A stretch of DNA of 34,800 bases from Candidatus Tayloriibacteriota bacterium (lineage in GTDB: Bacteria; Patescibacteriota; Minisyncoccia; Phycocordibacterales; PALSA-1337): assembly GCA_025353045.1 (NCBI GenBank), contig JANXRK010000045.1, positions 1-34,800 of the forward strand. Direction: 5' to 3'. Under the pieces are notes generated by a model. The model did not search any database and was not told where the DNA came from. It saw only the letters and a list, made by a program, of their open reading frames with translations. Positions 172 through 24,391 of the stretch are shown here, piece after piece. A program made the position numbers and the translations under genes. The stretch's first letter is position 1; the number at the start of each line of letters is the position of its first letter.

Positions 172-245
172 TGCCGGATCGTATAAAGGTAGTACGTCGC
201 TCTCTGAAAGCGAAAATTTTGGTTCGATTCCAAGTCCGGCAGCCA
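172..245 (+). tRNA. tRNA-Gln (anticodon CUG), CCA encoded
   Basis: Hand-folded cloverleaf. Acceptor TGCCGGA/TCCGGCA; D arm GTAT-AAAGGTA-GTAC; anticodon arm TCGCT-CTCTGAA-AGCGA (CTG at 34-36); T arm TTTGG-TTCGATT-CCAAG; discriminator G followed by CCA. Confidence 0.88.
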
Positions 246-12137: not shown

Positions 12138-13031
12138 CTAAAGTGCACGCTCGGCGGCGATGAAATCATCGAGGTCTCCTTCAAGTACTTTGTCCACCTG
12201 GCTCGTCTCAACATCTGTCCTATGATCTTTAACCATTTTATATGGATGAAAAACATATGATCGTATCTGATTTCCCCACTCTATAGAAGTAGTCTTACTA
12301 ATATACATTCCCTTTTCTCGAGCAACTCTTTCCTCTTCCATTTGTTTAAAAAGTTTACCTTTCAAAATATCCAAAGCTTTTTCTTTATTTTGTGCTTGAG
12401 AACGCTCAGATGTTACATGAACAGAAAGTCCTGTCGGCCTATGAATGATGCGCACAGCCGTTTCTCTTTTATTTACATTCTGACCTCCAGGGCCGCCAGA
12501 TTTTGCAATGGAAATATCGAGATCTTTATCTTCCAAAACAAGATCTGCACTATTTGTCTTTTCAAATTTAGGAATAATTTCAACCATTGAAAAAGAAGTA
12601 TGCCGCAGTTGTTTAGAATTGAACGGAGAAATTCTTACAAGACGATGCACACCACTTTCATTTTTTAAAGTTCCATAGACATCTTTTCCACTTATTTCAA
12701 CTGTAATGTTTCGATAGCCGCCATGATCGTTTGTATTTTCATGAATAAGTTCCATTCCCCAACCTTTATTCTCAGATAATTTTCTATACATACGATAAAG
12801 GATTGCTGAAAAATCCTCAGCATCGTCACCTCCTGCTCCAGAAAAAATCGTCAATATGGCATTACCCTTATCGAATTTACCTATACCAACCAAAGCATCT
12901 TTGAGATCCTGAAGCTCTTTAATCATGCCCTGAGCTTTTTGAGGATTAGACCAAAATTCAGCATCGGCTATAGCTGTCTCTATCTCTGATATTCTTACTT
13001 TGGTCTTTTCTATATTATTTTTTACTATCAT
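12138..13031 (-). CDS. prfB: Peptide chain release factor 2, short form
   Basis: 297 aa. Contains the SPF tripeptide (RISPFNSK) and GGQ (SGGPGGQNVNK). Only about 60 residues precede the FSGAGGDDAEDF block. It is a single uninterrupted frame. Confidence 0.9.
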   Translation of the reverse strand: MIVKNNIEKTKVRISEIETAIADAEFWSNPQKAQGMIKELQDLKDALVGIGKFDKGNAILTIFSGAGGDDAEDFSAILYRMYRKLSENKGWGMELIHENTNDHGGYRNITVEISGKDVYGTLKNESGVHRLVRISPFNSKQLRHTSFSMVEIIPKFEKTNSADLVLEDKDLDISIAKSGGPGGQNVNKRETAVRIIHRPTGLSVHVTSERSQAQNKEKALDILKGKLFKQMEEERVAREKGMYISKTTSIEWGNQIRSYVFHPYKMVKDHRTDVETSQVDKVLEGDLDDFIAAERAL

Positions 13032-13589: not shown

Positions 13590-13665
13590 TGGAGCCAAAG
13601 GTGAGAATCGGACTCACGACCTACGCTTTACGAAAGCGTTGCTCTACCAACTGAGCTACTTTGGC
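13590..13665 (-). tRNA. tRNA-Thr (anticodon CGU), CCA encoded
   Basis: Minus strand: GCCAAAG-TA-GCTC-AGTTGGTA-GAGC-A-ACGCT-TTCGTAA-AGCGT-AGGTC-GTGAG-TCCGATT-CTCAC-CTTTGGC-T-CCA. The T loop reads TCC rather than TTC. Confidence 0.85.
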
Positions 13666-13671
13666 TTAGGG

Positions 13672-13744
13672 AGCCGTTGTCCGGGATTGAACCGGAGACC
13701 TCGTCATTACCAATGACGTGCTCTACCAACTGAGCTACAACGGC
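13672..13744 (-). tRNA. tRNA-Thr (anticodon GGU)
   Basis: Minus strand: GCCGTTG-TA-GCTC-AGTTGGTA-GAGC-A-CGTCA-TTGGTAA-TGACG-AGGTC-TCCGG-TTCAATC-CCGGA-CAACGGC-T. No CCA is encoded. Confidence 0.9.
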
Positions 13745-13845
13745 AAACATTTTAACACTGACTAAGAATAGTCTATTTACTAAATGTTTTCAATAATTAG
13801 TACATATATAAGCCACTATTGAAGTCTTACAAATAATTTACTTTG

Positions 13846-13919
13846 CGCGATCGGCGGGACTCGAACCCGTAACCTCCCACGTGACAGGCGGGTGCTCTAA
13901 CCAGTTGAGCTACGATCGC
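13846..13919 (-). tRNA. tRNA-Asp (anticodon GUC)
   Basis: Minus strand: GCGATCG-TA-GCTC-AACTGGTTA-GAGC-A-CCCGC-CTGTCAC-GTGGG-AGGTT-ACGGG-TTCGAGT-CCCGC-CGATCGC-G. Confidence 0.88.
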
Positions 13920-13977
13920 AATGACTCTAAATGTATCAAAAATAAGCAAAAACGCAAGAAAATGATAGACCCAATTG

Positions 13978-14048
13978 TGTCGGTGAATGGAATCGGACCA
14001 TTGTCTGAGGCTTATGAGTCCTCCGTTCTACCATTGAACTACACCGAC
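13978..14048 (-). tRNA. tRNA with CAU anticodon, elongator-type (Met, or Ile2 if lysidine-modified)
   Basis: Minus strand: GTCGGTG-TA-GTTC-AATGGTA-GAAC-G-GAGGA-CTCATAA-GCCTC-AGAC-AATGG-TCCGATT-CCATT-CACCGAC-A. G1:C72 is paired and U11:A24 is present. The T loop is TCC, and there is an A31/G39 mismatch. Confidence 0.8.
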
Positions 14049-14059
14049 ATATATCCTTG

Positions 14060-14131
14060 TTGCGGAGGTCGGAATCGAACCGACAATCTTCAGGTTATGA
14101 GCCTGACGAGCTACCGTTGCTCTACCCCGCT
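14060..14131 (-). tRNA. tRNA-Met (CAU), probable initiator
   Basis: Minus strand: AGCGGGG-TA-GAGC-AACGGTA-GCTC-G-TCAGG-CTCATAA-CCTGA-AGATT-GTCGG-TTCGATT-CCGAC-CTCCGCA-A. Positions 1:72 are unpaired (A/A) and A11:U24 is present, as in bacterial initiators. Overall it resembles E. coli tRNA-fMet. Confidence 0.85.
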
Positions 14132-14172
14132 ATGACTATGCATATTAACACAAAAGTAGCGAGGTAGGCAAG

Positions 14173-14772
14173 CTATATATAGAAAAACTCCTCGAAGACC
14201 TTACGATACTGCTGAATAGTGCGCCGTGCATCTGATTGACTAAATAGATAATCGGACCCTGCATGCGCCAATTCATTTCGCACTTTATGTGCAGACCATG
14301 CATCGTCGAGGGTTTTAAAATCACCTTTATTTGCACGTTTAAGCTGTTCACCAATCCCCTCACCTTTATATCCTAATTGAGTCAAAAGATCGCCTAAAAT
14401 AATATCAGCTTCGATGATAGCCTGTCTCCAATCATTTTCGTTTTGCGATTCAACATGTTTCGTCGCTGAATCCCATTTTTTAGCAATTTCTGGATTACCC
14501 TTTGGTTTTGTGGGACTTGTTTCGGTATATCCCATCTCAATTGGTTTATCAAAAATTTCTGCTTCTTTTCGACGAACGGTCTTTAATTTTTCAATGACAA
14601 TAATAATACAAATAAAGAGTACGAGACATAGCGGCAGCGAAAAAATTACAAGAAAAGTGAAAACTGGCTTTATATAAGGTGCGACTACAGAAAAATTAGT
14701 AGTTATGAAATTAATAGTCGGACTAATATCAATTGTTGATCCGTGTATGATACCTATTGAATTATTTTGCAT
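14173..14772 (-). CDS. Single-pass membrane protein with a C-terminal HEPN/DUF4145-like domain (Rx4H motif)
   Basis: 199 aa. TM segment PVFTFLVIFSLPLCLVLFICIIIVI is followed by KLKTVRRKEAE, so the C-terminus is probably cytoplasmic. The C-terminal helical region ends in AWSAHKVRNELAHAG (RNELAH = R-N-x3-H). The start is 1 nt after the gatA stop. Confidence 0.7.
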   Translation of the reverse strand: MQNNSIGIIHGSTIDISPTINFITTNFSVVAPYIKPVFTFLVIFSLPLCLVLFICIIIVIEKLKTVRRKEAEIFDKPIEMGYTETSPTKPKGNPEIAKKWDSATKHVESQNENDWRQAIIEADIILGDLLTQLGYKGEGIGEQLKRANKGDFKTLDDAWSAHKVRNELAHAGSDYLFSQSDARRTIQQYRKVFEEFFYI

Positions 14773-14773
14773 A

Positions 14774-16186
14774 TTATTCTTTCAAAAATTCCTTCCCTGC
14801 TTTAAAAAGCAAAGCCTCATTTCCATGCAGCGCGGTCATTTGGATTCCTAGTGGAAGCTTTCCACTTACACCTGAAGGAATCGAAATAGCTGGCATTCCA
14901 GTGAGATTTGCAGTGACCGTAAATATATCTTCGAGATACATTGCTACAGGATCTGAAATCTTTTCACCAATCTTGAAAGCCGGAGCGGGAGTTGTAGGTG
15001 TTAGTATTATATCAACAGTTTTAAAAGCTGTCTCAAAGTCAGAGGTGATAACTCGTCGAAGTGCATTTGCGCGGTTGTAGTATGCATCATAGTATCCAGA
15101 AGAAAGAATGTAGGTTCCAAGAAGAACTCTCCGCCTTACTTCTTTTCCAAAACCAGCTCCACGAGTCTCAAAGTAATCATCGATACCATCTTTTCCATCT
15201 TTATGAAGACCGAATCTAACACCGTCAAATCGCGAAAGGTTTGAACTTACTTCAGCAGGCATAATTACATAATACACAGGAAGTGAATACGCAATATTTG
15301 GAAGCTCAACATCTTTTATTTCATATCCCAGTTTTTTAAAGTTTTCTATTGATTCTTCAAAGTTTTTTAAGACATCTTTATTAATTCCATCTCCTTTTAG
15401 AAAAGCCTTAGGAATTCCGATAGTTAATTTTTTATCAGTTTTTTTAGTTTTGTAAGTAGTATCAGAAATAGTAGTACTATCTAAACTATCATTTCCTTTT
15501 ATAGTATTAAAAATAATTTCTGCATCAGTGACTGTTTTTGCAAAAGGACCGATCTGATCCAAAGAAGATCCCATAGCCATCACGCCATTTCGTGAGACTG
15601 CTCCGTATGTTGCCTTGAGTCCTACCAATCCACAGAACGATGCCGGCTGTCTAATAGATCCTCCCGTATCAGATCCGAGTGCAGCTAAAGCCCCGTCCAT
15701 AGCAAGAGCTGCAGCAGATCCACCAGATGATCCTCCAGCCACTCGCTCTGTATCATATGGATTCTTTGTAACTCCATATGCAGAGTTTTCTGTTGAACCT
15801 CCCATGGCGAATTCATCCATATTAGTTCGACCGATAAATACAGCACCTTCTCTTTTTAATTTTTCGATGACTGTCGCGTCGTAGGTAGCATGATAGTTTT
15901 CAAGAATTTTTGATGCTGATCCAGCTCGTCTTCCTTTTATTAAGATATTATCTTTTATCGCAAAAGGAATTCCAGTAAGCAGAGTTGCTGCTCCAGCTTT
16001 AAATCGTGTGTCTGCTGCTTGTGCCTGTTCTTCAGCGTCTTTGAAAACCTCGAGATATGCATTGATTTCAGGATTTTTCTTTTTAATTTCTTCTAAATAT
16101 GCCTTGGTCAAATCAACAGCAGAATATTTTCCAGACTTGATATCTTCATGAGCCTTTTTGATTGTGAGATTTTTGAGGTCGATCAT
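14774..16186 (-). CDS. gatA: Glu/Asp-tRNA amidotransferase subunit A
   Basis: 470 aa with the amidase signature GGSSGGSAAALA...GSDTGGSIRQPASFCG. Confidence 0.95.
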   Translation of the reverse strand: MIDLKNLTIKKAHEDIKSGKYSAVDLTKAYLEEIKKKNPEINAYLEVFKDAEEQAQAADTRFKAGAATLLTGIPFAIKDNILIKGRRAGSASKILENYHATYDATVIEKLKREGAVFIGRTNMDEFAMGGSTENSAYGVTKNPYDTERVAGGSSGGSAAALAMDGALAALGSDTGGSIRQPASFCGLVGLKATYGAVSRNGVMAMGSSLDQIGPFAKTVTDAEIIFNTIKGNDSLDSTTISDTTYKTKKTDKKLTIGIPKAFLKGDGINKDVLKNFEESIENFKKLGYEIKDVELPNIAYSLPVYYVIMPAEVSSNLSRFDGVRFGLHKDGKDGIDDYFETRGAGFGKEVRRRVLLGTYILSSGYYDAYYNRANALRRVITSDFETAFKTVDIILTPTTPAPAFKIGEKISDPVAMYLEDIFTVTANLTGMPAISIPSGVSGKLPLGIQMTALHGNEALLFKAGKEFLKE

Positions 16187-22271: not shown

Positions 22272-22742
22272 CTATTTTGGTTGAACGCAATAATAAAAAC
22301 TTGGCGAAGTCTTGGTGCAATCTAGATTTAAGATATTGTTATTATTCGGCGCATCTGTCAAAGCAGCATTTGAACTTTCTAATTTAGCTTGAATTACATA
22401 ATCCGTACCAGACATAGCATAATTATATACCGCGAGCGTTGTTGGATCTTTAGGTATCACTGCGATAAAATCACTTAATTTAGTTCCAGATACCAGACAA
22501 CCATTAATACTATTTGATGGAATCGCATATTCTGCAGGTGATGGAAAAACTGAACATTTATCAAAAGCTTGTTCGAGGGCGAGTTGGATCTGATTTACAT
22601 CAGAAACTCTTTTTGCATCTCGAGCTCGAGCTCGGGCAGTTGTGAAATTAGCAGTAACAATAGCTGTTAAAATTCCAATAATTGCAATAACGACTAGTAA
22701 TTCTATTAATGTAAACCCTGACTTAAAAAGTGTTTTTTTCAT
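22272..22742 (-). CDS. Type IV major-pilin-like protein
   Basis: The tracked ORF uses a TTG at 22802. The ATG at 22742 gives a canonical short leader, MKKTLFKSG/FTLIELLVVIAIIGILTAIV. TATAAT (22755-22750) ends 7 nt before this ATG. The stop abuts the pilD start. Confidence 0.85.
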   Translation of the reverse strand: MKKTLFKSGFTLIELLVVIAIIGILTAIVTANFTTARARARDAKRVSDVNQIQLALEQAFDKCSVFPSPAEYAIPSNSINGCLVSGTKLSDFIAVIPKDPTTLAVYNYAMSGTDYVIQAKLESSNAALTDAPNNNNILNLDCTKTSPSFYYCVQPK

Positions 22743-22853
22743 TAGACTAATTATACCCCATGTCAATATAAAAACGAATCCCCCAAAGATGTACCAGCGC
22801 AAACTAGTGTCTCTTCGGGGGATTGTGGGTTTTGATCGTGGTCGCGCAGTTCG

Positions 22854-23123
22854 TCACTGCAGACAAGGATCAGGCGCATGAGTCGGCGTGGCCATCATCT
22901 GCTCGAGCACGAAGTCAATGATTTCGTCCAGCATACCAATGACGTTCTTGATCAGTTTGGTGACTCCAGCCAATTTGATCAGCATATAGCTACCGTCGCA
23001 GACGACGTACTCGATCTGAGTGTCCACAAATTCAATATTTTTGGTGGTATTGAACCCTTTGCGAGCCCTCAATGCTCTTATGAGCTGCTTGTGGATTATG
23101 GGCCTTTTAATCTTCTCGGACAT
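22854..23123 (-). CDS. Hypothetical 89-aa protein in a GC-rich, compositionally foreign insert
   Basis: The ATG ORF has 58 of 89 codons ending in G or C (hand count), very unlike its neighbours, and first codon positions are purine-rich. An equal-length antisense ORF (22878-23147) also exists, so the coding strand is not certain. No motif recognised. Confidence 0.45.
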   Translation of the reverse strand: MSEKIKRPIIHKQLIRALRARKGFNTTKNIEFVDTQIEYVVCDGSYMLIKLAGVTKLIKNVIGMLDEIIDFVLEQMMATPTHAPDPCLQ

Positions 23124-23152
23124 TTTATTAGGGGGTCAAGTGAGTAGGTGCA

Positions 23153-23184
23153 CGGATACGTTGTCGCCAGACAACGCACATCCG
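23153..23184. other. Two-tier stem-loop: in the putative 5' UTR of the 89-aa ORF, or just 3' of the antisense ORF
   Basis: cggat (23153-57), a, cgttgtc (23159-65), gcca, gacaacg (23170-76), cac, atccg (23180-84). Confidence 0.5.
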
Positions 23185-23200
23185 GAACATCTGGACAATA

Positions 23201-23228
23201 ACTATACTACGATTATTTAAATCGTCAA
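23201..23228 (-). promoter_or_regulatory. Near-consensus sigma-70 promoter TTGACG-16 nt-TATAGT facing the 89-aa ORF and the pilin operon
   Basis: Minus-strand read: TTGACG (23228-23223), atttaaataatcgtag, TATAGT (23206-23201). This predicts a leader of about 70 nt before the ATG at 23123. Confidence 0.5.
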
Positions 23229-23239
23229 GAAAATAAAGA

Positions 23240-24391
23240 TTAGTTATGCACAGTTGAACTAGCGGCTTGAAGTGCTGAAGCTGTGTAAACATTTGAAGCA
23301 TTCCATAACATCCAACTTGTTAAGCCCGAATCATACGTGGCTTGTATCTGGGCACGCACCATATTTGGAGTATACTCTACTCCACCAATACTAAAATCTT
23401 GTAACCAAGGTCGAAGTTTGGTTGCTGTTGTACTTGCAAGATCTGCTTTCTTAACTGCCTCACCCATTGCATATTTAATAACTTCATATGGTTTCGCAGC
23501 AGGCTTTGGATATCCTAAAAATGTTGCTGGATAATGCGACGGATAGACCATCGGCGCCACGAAATCAAAATGTACGAGCGCATCACCCAAGATTTGTCCG
23601 ATTCCCAGATCACCATGAGACGATGTTGTCATACCAAAAAGATCTGCAGAAATTGGAATTTTCTTTTTGTGGAATGTTGTATCGAGATATGCAAAAAAGT
23701 CTTTGAGTGCATCTGGCTTACTTTTTCTTTGGCTAAACGGAAAAGCGATATCCTCCATATTTCCATCAGAAGGAAAACGAATATAGTCAAAATTTAATTC
23801 ATCAAAGCCAGCTGCATATGACTCTTCACCAATGAGTGTTAGATAGTCCCATACGGGTTTTGCGCTGACATCCAACCAACTGATTCCCTTTCGATCTTTC
23901 CAAAGTTTTCCAGCCTTATCAGTTACAGCCAATTCTGGTTTTGAATGAACAAGAAATGAGTCTTGGAATGAAGAAATTCTTCCAATAACGTAGATACCTT
24001 TATCATGAAGTTTTCCGATAAATTCTTTTATGTCTGGGATGCGATTTTCTACGGAATTGTAAGCTTGGAGCTTGGGGTCATCCACTTTAAAACTGATACG
24101 ACCTGTATAGTCCTTGATATCTATCACAACCGCATTAATCTCTGTTTTATCCATAAGGTCAACAAGATTATTTCTAAGCTTACTATTACCAGCCACCCAA
24201 CTCGACATATAAATAGCTTTCAAAGGAACTGGGGTCTGTATATGAGTAACAGCAAAGGGCGTTGGAATAGTTGTTGTTGCTTGAACAATATTTTTAGTTC
24301 TGTATGTTTGATATTCAAATGGATAGAAGTAGGCAGTAACAAGCACACCGATAAAAATTGCTATTGTCACTATATACAAAACCCTACTCAT
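23240..24391 (-). CDS. Membrane-anchored putative glycoside hydrolase (DUF4015-like TIM barrel)
   Basis: 383 aa with an N-terminal TM. KAIYMSSW...INAVVIDIKDYTGRISF...GIYVIGRISSFQD...FDELNFDYIRFPSDG matches my recollection of the DUF4015 family pattern. Confidence 0.7.
   Translation of the reverse strand: MSRVLYIVTIAIFIGVLVTAYFYPFEYQTYRTKNIVQATTTIPTPFAVTHIQTPVPLKAIYMSSWVAGNSKLRNNLVDLMDKTEINAVVIDIKDYTGRISFKVDDPKLQAYNSVENRIPDIKEFIGKLHDKGIYVIGRISSFQDSFLVHSKPELAVTDKAGKLWKDRKGISWLDVSAKPVWDYLTLIGEESYAAGFDELNFDYIRFPSDGNMEDIAFPFSQRKSKPDALKDFFAYLDTTFHKKKIPISADLFGMTTSSHGDLGIGQILGDALVHFDFVAPMVYPSHYPATFLGYPKPAAKPYEVIKYAMGEAVKKADLASTTATKLRPWLQDFSIGGVEYTPNMVRAQIQATYDSGLTSWMLWNASNVYTASALQAASSTVHN

Follow-up and report, generated by a model that had tools for sequence, protein, structure and literature searches.

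The closest described counterparts of the locus reported here are the ORFan small-protein genes of bacteria. The gene in question lies on the minus strand of a 34,800-nt stretch of DNA (the window; all positions are coordinates of this 34.8 kb stretch) from a bacterium of the Candidate Phyla Radiation (CPR; Patescibacteria) that resembles Paceibacteria/Taylorbacteria, between a gene for a DUF4015 putative glycosyl hydrolase and the gene for the major prepilin. Like an ORFan, its open reading frame (ORF) encodes an 89-aa protein with no homologue or recognizable domain, the protein changes rapidly, and the corresponding ORFs of relatives are annotated as hypothetical proteins. Unlike the ORFans, it keeps its regulatory frame and chromosomal position throughout a wide clade in which the protein is not conserved, and the G+C content of third codon positions (GC3) shows an excess of about 8.6 standard deviations (SD) that is common to the AT-rich relatives.

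Other known systems share some features with the locus. Stem-loops at the 5' end stabilize mRNAs, as in the 5' untranslated region (UTR) of E. coli ompA and the leaders of B. subtilis aprE and ermC, and such stabilizer hairpins block RNase J, a 5'-end-dependent nuclease. The small gene likewise has a stable hairpin at or near its predicted 5' end, in a leader of about 70 nt; the hairpin is conserved while its stem sequence turns over, and CPR bacteria keep RNase J. Unlike the known stabilizers, the hairpin of the window may start about 9 nt from the predicted 5' end, and a lower-stem GGAUG...CAUC is conserved, which is not required of a pure stabilizer. In Pseudomonas, the pilin-locus accessory genes tfpO and tfpX-Z adjoin pilA. 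Here, too, a variable small gene sits directly beside a variable major pilin gene, but it is upstream rather than downstream, has its own promoter and terminator, is linked to DUF4015, and has no sequence or domain similarity to the Pseudomonas genes. Horizontally acquired genomic islets resemble the locus in that local composition and codon usage deviate strongly from those of the genome. In contrast to an islet, the small gene is at the same site in all sampled relatives, is not accompanied by repeats, an integrase, or a tRNA target, and has a composition that persists instead of drifting to the genome average. Structural RNAs (tRNA, RNase P RNA, transfer-messenger RNA (tmRNA), 6S RNA, and signal recognition particle (SRP) RNA) form GC peaks, and that of the segment is comparable to the peak of the window's tRNA cluster; however, no covariance model matches the segment, its GC excess is periodic at codon position 3, and the open frame is conserved.

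A conserved frame downstream of DUF4015

The segment 22770-23228 of the minus strand is, in the reading we favor as probable, a self-contained transcription unit at a conserved site downstream of DUF4015 in Paceibacteria-type CPR bacteria, producing a fast-evolving orphan protein from an mRNA that is probably stabilized. The features of the unit and its flanks are as follows.

23240-24391, minus strand: DUF4015 putative glycosyl hydrolase gene (PF13200, 3.5e-96), the conserved upstream neighbor of the small-gene site
23223-23228, minus strand: predicted -35 hexamer TTGACG (consensus scan), 11 nt past the DUF4015 stop codon
23201-23206, minus strand: predicted -10 hexamer TATAGT (consensus scan), separated from the -35 by a 16-nt spacer
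23188-23194, minus strand: conserved box CCAGATG (TATCCRGATG in consensus), where transcription is predicted to start, about 23191-23192
23146-23192, minus strand: 5' leader hairpin with core stem-loop 23153-23184 (-19.5 kcal/mol, z -2.66)
22854-23123, minus strand: small orphan ORF, 89 codons plus TGA, MSEKIKRP...DPCLQ, GC3 0.644
22878-23147, plus strand: mirror antisense ORF, 89 codons, judged an artefact of sense codon usage
22770-22824, minus strand: intrinsic terminator, a 13-bp outer stem and an inner stem (22777-22824), then CG and TTTTT (22770-22774)
22750-22755, minus strand: pilin -10 box TATAAT, 7 nt before the pilin ATG, which implies that the pilin mRNA is leaderless
22272-22742, minus strand: major prepilin gene, N_methyl motif (8.7e-08), ATG at 22742, MKKTLFKSG/FTLIELL

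To survey the same site in relatives, DUF4015 was used as an anchor, which gave 160 loci, 80 from genomes and 80 from metagenomes. The nearest genome, L001, is a Candidatus Taylorbacteria metagenome-assembled genome with a DUF4015 that is 85% identical to that of the window, and a metagenome scan with DUF4015 found nothing closer. In L001, L003-L007, L009, and L073 the pilin gene follows DUF4015 across a spacer of 440-590 bp with the same layout: a TTGAC-N17-TAnnnT promoter, a (T)ATCCRGATG box, a hairpin, a same-strand ORF of 49-112 codons, a terminator (at most loci), and the pilin -10. Every sampled relative with the DUF4015-to-pilin arrangement has this spacer layout, and in every relative the frame is open, on the same strand and at the same offset. 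The initial annotation of the stretch had suggested that comparison of syntenic relatives might reveal the segment as an indel, and the presence of the spacer in all eight of these loci speaks against that. When the window is aligned with L001, conservation extends from DUF4015 through the promoter and the box to ATGTCCG, the start common to the two ORFs; within the ORF body similarity is no better than random, and it returns from the terminator onward. The promoter, box, hairpin, and small ORF also follow DUF4015 in about 30 Paceibacteria loci that are more distant, where the next gene is one other than pilin. By pattern, the leader box follows DUF4015 at 50 of 137 loci, a count that includes a few false matches, and 43 of these 50 have a small ORF. 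The pilin gene is linked to the unit in the closest clade only, and linkage to DUF4015 is much wider. Because the unit is also present where the next gene is not pilin, the conserved linkage is to DUF4015 and not to the pilus. In sum, judged from these comparisons, the regulatory frame is conserved across relatives and the protein is not.

The promoter proposed in the initial annotation, TTGACG-16-TATAGT (23228-23201), agrees with the consensus at 10 of 12 positions and is confirmed here as a predicted sigma-70-type promoter with spacing within 16-18 nt. TTGAC is found at the same place in L001, L004-L007, L009, L015, and L073, and the TAnnnT box is conserved in relatives. The start box, 6 nt after the -10, is conserved at about 30 loci, occurring once per locus. 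In the window (23179-23197, minus strand, CCAGATGTTCCGGATG) and in L001 (5461-5480, CCAGATGTTCAGATG) the box is found in tandem, with one copy in the other relatives; the second copy of the window, CCGGATG, is at 23179-23185, and the leader hairpin is built on it. A role for the box as a wider operator within the window was rejected, there being no enrichment elsewhere in the window. Spacing would place the transcription start of the small gene at the box, and the CCRGATG box itself could be a DNA operator or an RNA-protein contact.

Downstream of the hairpin, whose core is the stem-loop pointed out earlier at 23153-23184, an A-rich linker leads to the ATG, with no Shine-Dalgarno match. The stem interiors are not alignable between loci, each locus forming its own stem. 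Because the stems could not be aligned by sequence (MAFFT/RNAalifold), per-sequence folding statistics were used in place of covariation. For 29 non-identical leaders the mean folding z was -2.36, and 17 were below -2. Further, at least four of the first five nt counted from the start of the box were paired in 19 of the 29 leaders, vs. 39% in shuffles (P = 0.003).

In three loci an additional GC-rich unit, about 150 nt long, separates DUF4015 from the leader of the small gene, at about 5140-5330 in L024, 6220-6400 in L025, and 6130-6320 in L026. It comes with a TTGAC/TATATT promoter and a terminator of its own and resembles a structured RNA; a 4.5S/SRP-like AGGUCC...GAAAG...AGCAGC stretch is seen by eye, with no Rfam family at the gathering score.

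The terminator has a folding energy of -36.6 kcal/mol (z -5.0), and TTTTT lies 2 nt after the stem; a simple scan missed it because the loop is longer than 8 nt. Its 3' arm and T-tract, GGGGATTCGTTTTTATA (22770-22786), are identical in the window, L001, L004, L005, and L006, and the 5' arm and loop vary with compensating changes. Other loci have variant hairpins, and a hairpin with a T-run follows the ORF at 23 of 29 loci. GGGGATTCGTTTTTATA occupies the place expected of a pilin -35 or upstream element, and it may double as terminator and as part of the pilin promoter. Further downstream, TATAATTA-N4-5-ATG of the pilin gene is conserved in L001, L003-L007, L009, and L073. That ATG, at 22742, is the real start of the pilin gene, since tblastn alignments to relatives begin at this Met. 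The TTG at 22802 given as the start in the mechanical ORF list (176 aa) was rejected; the extension, 22743-22802, crosses the terminator and the pilin -10 box.

Composition, coding capacity, and divergence of the small gene

The initial annotation had drawn attention to GC content, and its counts for the six 60-nt lines of 22861-23220 (34, 26, 26, 28, 28, and 24 G+C) were reproduced; they amount to 46.1%, vs. a mean of 36.7% for the window. When the 34.8 kb is divided into 400-nt pieces, 22801-23200 has the highest GC, 48.5%, and the second highest, 44.8%, is the tRNA cluster. Among 270-nt pieces just 0.8% are at least as GC-rich as the ORF, and one of these is inside an amidase (PF01425) gene. 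The second-highest 270-nt peak (50.4%, at 15540-15809) is inside that gene, which occupies 14774-16186. By itself, then, the GC of the segment is unusual and not unique.

The decisive anomaly is third-position GC. The GC3 of the ORF, 0.644, compares with 0.272 +/- 0.043 (maximum 0.392) in the 32 other genes, which puts the ORF about 8.6 SD above them; as noted in the initial annotation, 58 of the 89 sense codons end in G or C, giving 0.652 when the stop codon is left out. First and second positions are ordinary (GC1 0.467, GC2 0.311), and the excess is confined to codon position 3, with a period of three in the frame of the ORF. Both C-ending and G-ending codons are enriched, and both UTRs are GC-rich as well, with 52% for the leader and 51% for the 3' UTR beside 64% for the third codon positions. 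The enrichment of both kinds of codon and of both UTRs makes this a property of the whole transcript rather than an adaptation to tRNAs. In AT-rich relatives the ORF at the same site has a GC3 of 0.43-0.74 vs. a background of 0.23-0.30, with z from 5 to 17 for most, and the same-site ORFs of GC-richer relatives have no GC3 excess. GC3 at this site is about 0.45-0.7 regardless of host GC.

Both 89-codon ORFs listed in the initial annotation, the one on the minus strand and its exact antisense, are present. We conclude with good confidence that the minus-strand ORF is a protein-coding gene, on the grounds that its GC excess has a period of three, that the same-strand frame is open in every relative, and that pairs of same-site ORFs have ratios of nonsynonymous to synonymous divergence (dN/dS) below 1: 0.51 for L004/L005, 0.18 for L037/L056, and 0.14 for L048/L049. 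An ATG ORF of at least 89 codons arises on the sense strand in 3.1% of dinucleotide shuffles, so that the window ORF by itself offers indirect and weak evidence of coding, which the comparative data make strong.

As the initial annotation had found, the protein could not be recognized. A full HMMER search of 1.84e9 representative proteins and a word-indexed search of 5.8e9 proteins each gave zero homologues of the ORF. BLASTP and profile searches had been proposed for both 89-aa translations, and neither matched a family: Pfam, PHROGs, and NCBIfam gave noise only. No relative of the ORF was found in viral and metagenome contigs, and the ORFs of relatives are themselves near-singletons, annotated only as hypothetical proteins. 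BLASTP and hhalign comparisons of the window ORF with the L003/L006 pair were not significant. Smith-Waterman comparison gave a faint similarity between the window and L003 ORFs, with 3 of 5000 shuffles scoring as well and 38 comparisons made; this is a hint only, but it suggests descent over replacement. A MAFFT alignment of the window and L001 proteins was rejected as spurious. The single-sequence AF2 model of the window protein is of low confidence (pLDDT 52.8), and Foldseek found no match for it. The same-site family of other lineages is modeled as a beta-hairpin and two helices (pLDDT 63.9), with nothing below E 2 and no match in the PDB or among solved folds. By eye, the window protein has no signal peptide and no membrane segment; its N-terminal third is basic and its C-terminus acidic and helical. 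Nothing relevant was found in the literature on CPR small proteins, DUF4015, or pilin-adjacent genes. We favor, as probable, a cytoplasmic factor that is specific to the lineage and subject to weak or diversifying constraint.

Divergence rates bear on where the gene came from. In the three comparable pairs (L004/L005, L037/L056, and L048/L049) the ORFs show graded identities of 61%, 69%, and 80%. The ORF dN is 1.4-10 times the DUF4015 dN, and the ORF dS is the lower of the two in the same genome pairs, 0.62 vs. 0.90, 1.01 vs. 2.65, and 1.03 vs. 2.49. A dS below that of DUF4015 despite faster protein change is a sign of selection on synonymous sites. For the window and L001 the DUF4015 dS is about 1.4, i.e., saturated, and for a weakly constrained protein of 70-90 aa this makes divergence in place enough to erase similarity; the near-identical pair L026/L027 retains the same ORF with one substitution. 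The 34.8 kb contains no flanking repeats and no second copy of any part of the segment, and no mobility genes, integrase, or tRNA target were found at the segment. A diversity-generating retroelement target was considered and rejected: there is no template/variable repeat in the 34.8 kb, and no reverse transcriptase was found when the 32 window ORFs were compared with Pfam. Given the GC3 excess in AT-rich relatives and an ORF dS lower than that of DUF4015, the composition is not imported. We infer that the gene was vertically inherited and diverged where it sits, its GC enrichment apparently held by selection on the RNA or the locus rather than left over from transfer.

Weighing the explanations

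If the favored reading is correct, the unit would yield an mRNA that is monocistronic, long-lived, and highly expressed. RNase J would be blocked by the 5' hairpin and PNPase by the 3' hairpin, and the GC-rich body would present few AU-rich sites for cleavage. The terminator would also insulate the pilin mRNA, which is leaderless and has to start at its own AUG for translation. All three of RNase J, RNase III, and PNPase are kept by CPR genomes (PMC12641178). Several points weigh against this reading. The transcription start, the expression level, and the stability of the mRNA are all predicted from sequence. ORF length alone, with a chance probability of 0.03, is weak evidence, and the window ORF has no alignable homologue from which its own dN/dS could be computed. 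Compared with dinucleotide shuffles, the ORF body of the window has no extra structure (z -0.10). If transcription starts at the first copy of the duplicated box, the main hairpin lies about 9 nt from the 5' end, which weakens pure 5'-end protection, though the minimum-energy fold of the window leader still pairs the 5' end. Finally, a stabilizer role does not account for the sequence conservation of CCRGATG.

A second reading, possible but well behind in probability, puts the emphasis on the expression frame. Promoter, CCRGATG leader hairpin, and terminator would form a conserved frame after DUF4015 in which a small protein continually diverges or is re-invented, selection on the mRNA itself keeping the gene GC3-rich. 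The site would then be an innovation hotspot, perhaps tied to host/phage conflict in these surface-attached symbionts, and the leader would count as a new motif, either a cis-regulatory RNA or an operator.

It is rather doubtful that the ORF turns over by recombination, with the promoter/leader and terminator acting as homology arms, the ORF body being swapped from a shared pool, and GC-biased gene conversion raising GC3. Such exchange would be consistent with the sharp loss and recovery of window-L001 similarity at the ORF boundaries, with a GC3 of about 0.45-0.7 whatever the host GC, and with the division of the ORFs into several mutually unalignable groups. Against it, the DUF4015 dS between the window and L001 is about 1.4, at which unconstrained sequence would be randomized anyway. 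Further, the comparable ORF pairs diverge gradually, L026 and L027 keep the same ORF, no ORF turned up in a second lineage or context, and the faint similarity to the L003 ORF suggests descent. Replacement of the ORF by recombination is possible and is not needed.

We think it unlikely that the product is an RNA (structured, regulatory non-coding, or dual-function) with the ORF incidental or secondary. Structural RNAs typically stand out by their high GC where the genome is AT-rich, the whole transcript folds with z -3.46, the ORF bodies of 22 loci are mildly over-structured (mean z -0.95 vs. +0.14 for DUF4015 segments), and synonymous sites are constrained. The structured RNA suggested by the initial annotation nevertheless failed to materialize: the Rfam covariance scan gave only tRNAs in the window at the gathering threshold and nothing relevant in 22600-23450 at E values up to 10, none of 13 related loci had an Rfam match, and ARAGORN found no tmRNA. 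The absence of extra structure in the window ORF body, the period-3 GC excess in the ORF frame, and the open same-strand frame of every relative, with dN/dS below 1 where measurable, all argue against an RNA product. What structure there is lies chiefly at the two ends of the unit, in the leader and the terminator.

Still less probable is a cis-regulator of the type IV pilin operon, working by read-through into the pilin promoter or by interference with it. The unit adjoins the pilin gene on the same strand, and the conserved GGGGATTCGTTTTTATA overlaps the would-be pilin -35 position. But a strong terminator (-36.6 kcal/mol) stands between the unit and the pilin gene, which has its own leaderless -10 box, so that transcription feeding into the pilin operon, as the initial annotation had envisaged, is unlikely, and read-through transcripts would carry an untranslatable leader. 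Linkage to pilin in the closest clade only, against the much wider linkage to DUF4015, also argues against this explanation. Some interference is conceivable, given that the terminator 3' arm and T-tract overlap the region just 5' of the pilin -10, as is partial read-through.

Recent horizontal acquisition, in which a small foreign gene from a GC-richer donor was inserted between DUF4015 and the pilin gene, is very improbable. This was the first proposal made for the segment, and the atypical codon usage and the orphan protein are what such an event would leave. The site, promoter, box, hairpin, and ORF are nonetheless in all sampled relatives, most with the same terminator; the spacer architecture recurs in L001 and seven further relatives, and the AT-rich ones share the GC3 excess. 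The initial annotation had itself allowed that presence in all relatives would argue against a foreign origin; the segment is present in all of them by position, architecture, and composition, and not by sequence. The synonymous sites of the ORF evolve more slowly than those of DUF4015, unlike those of drifting foreign DNA, there are no flanking repeats or mobility genes, and no donor-like sequence was found in viral and metagenome contigs. What stands of the first proposal is a small gene with its own promoter and structured leader; recent acquisition and a known or evident structured RNA do not, and feeding of the pilin operon probably does not.

That the equally long plus-strand ORF (22878-23147) is a real gene, or that both strands code, has next to no probability: although only 0.2% of shuffles give 89 codons on both strands, the antisense ORF is an exact codon-aligned mirror that is open because the sense strand has no TTA, CTA, or TCA among its 8 Leu and 2 Ser codons (with codon usage usual for the genome the mirror frame would be open just 3% of the time), no relative has a full-length antisense ORF, a consensus scan found no promoter-like site upstream, and there is no family match.

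Chromosomal setting and meaning for CPR bacteria

The window is core chromosome of a Patescibacteria genome. Its genes include those for MurB, SecA, CTP synthase, an FtsE-type ABC ATPase, FtsX, a release factor, NAD-dependent DNA ligase, Mur ligases, five tRNAs, and the amidase with GatC (Glu-tRNA-Gln amidotransferase). The flanks of the segment, DUF4015 and a prepilin with an N_methyl motif, are on the same strand as the small gene, as the initial annotation had said, and a prepilin peptidase gene and four minor pilin-like genes lie 3' of the pilin gene. The neighborhood consists of DUF4015, pilins, PilD, and RsmI-like housekeeping genes. The tRNA cluster, at 13590-14131 (minus strand), has five genes (Thr-CGT, Thr-GGT, Asp-GTC, and two Met-CAT) and explains a GC peak near 13600-14400; a tRNA-Gln gene stands apart at 172-245 (plus strand). 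The release-factor gene (12138-13031, minus strand) encodes only 297 aa, with PCRF and RF-1 domains, and begins at position 81 of the PCRF model. Because no CTTTGAC frameshift site was found near its 5' end, it is not obviously a frameshifted prfB, and the product may be a shortened release factor.

The initial annotation had remarked that neighboring genes have -10 boxes abutting their start codons, and this proved to be general: a -10-like box lies 6-8 nt 5' of the start codon in at least 12 genes besides the small gene. Most operon-first genes have such a box, often TG-extended (GTGATATAAT, GTGATAATAT), and no Shine-Dalgarno. Examples are the following starts.

5010 (plus), 10454 (minus), 11426 (minus), 12116 (minus), 16557 (minus), 19309 (minus): starts with a -10-like box 6-8 nt upstream
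22742 (minus), 24570 (minus), 25261 (minus), 31239 (plus), 33426 (minus): further starts with a -10-like box 6-8 nt upstream

Boxes at this distance before most operon-first starts make leaderless mRNAs the norm, and this CPR genome appears to use them by default. The small gene departs from the norm: its promoter is of the -35/-10 kind, and its leader is about 70 nt long.

As an orphan small-protein gene the object itself is ordinary. The package, the codon anomaly, and the undescribed leader motif are unusual, and we regard the novelty as moderate, as is the practical importance. The locus corrects a tempting misreading, since foreign DNA is the usual explanation when GC and codon usage are anomalous in an AT-rich genome; here the anomaly belongs to a single transcription unit, in which it was apparently inherited vertically and is maintained locally. 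The unit at this site also identifies a family of small, very rapidly evolving proteins whose members are annotated as unrelated hypotheticals, and the leader box and hairpin, both conserved, are candidates for a new cis-regulatory motif not found in Rfam. CPR bacteria have minimal RNA-decay machinery and mostly leaderless genes. If the mRNA-level explanation is true, the locus would be a natural test case for synonymous-site selection and mRNA stability in these bacteria.

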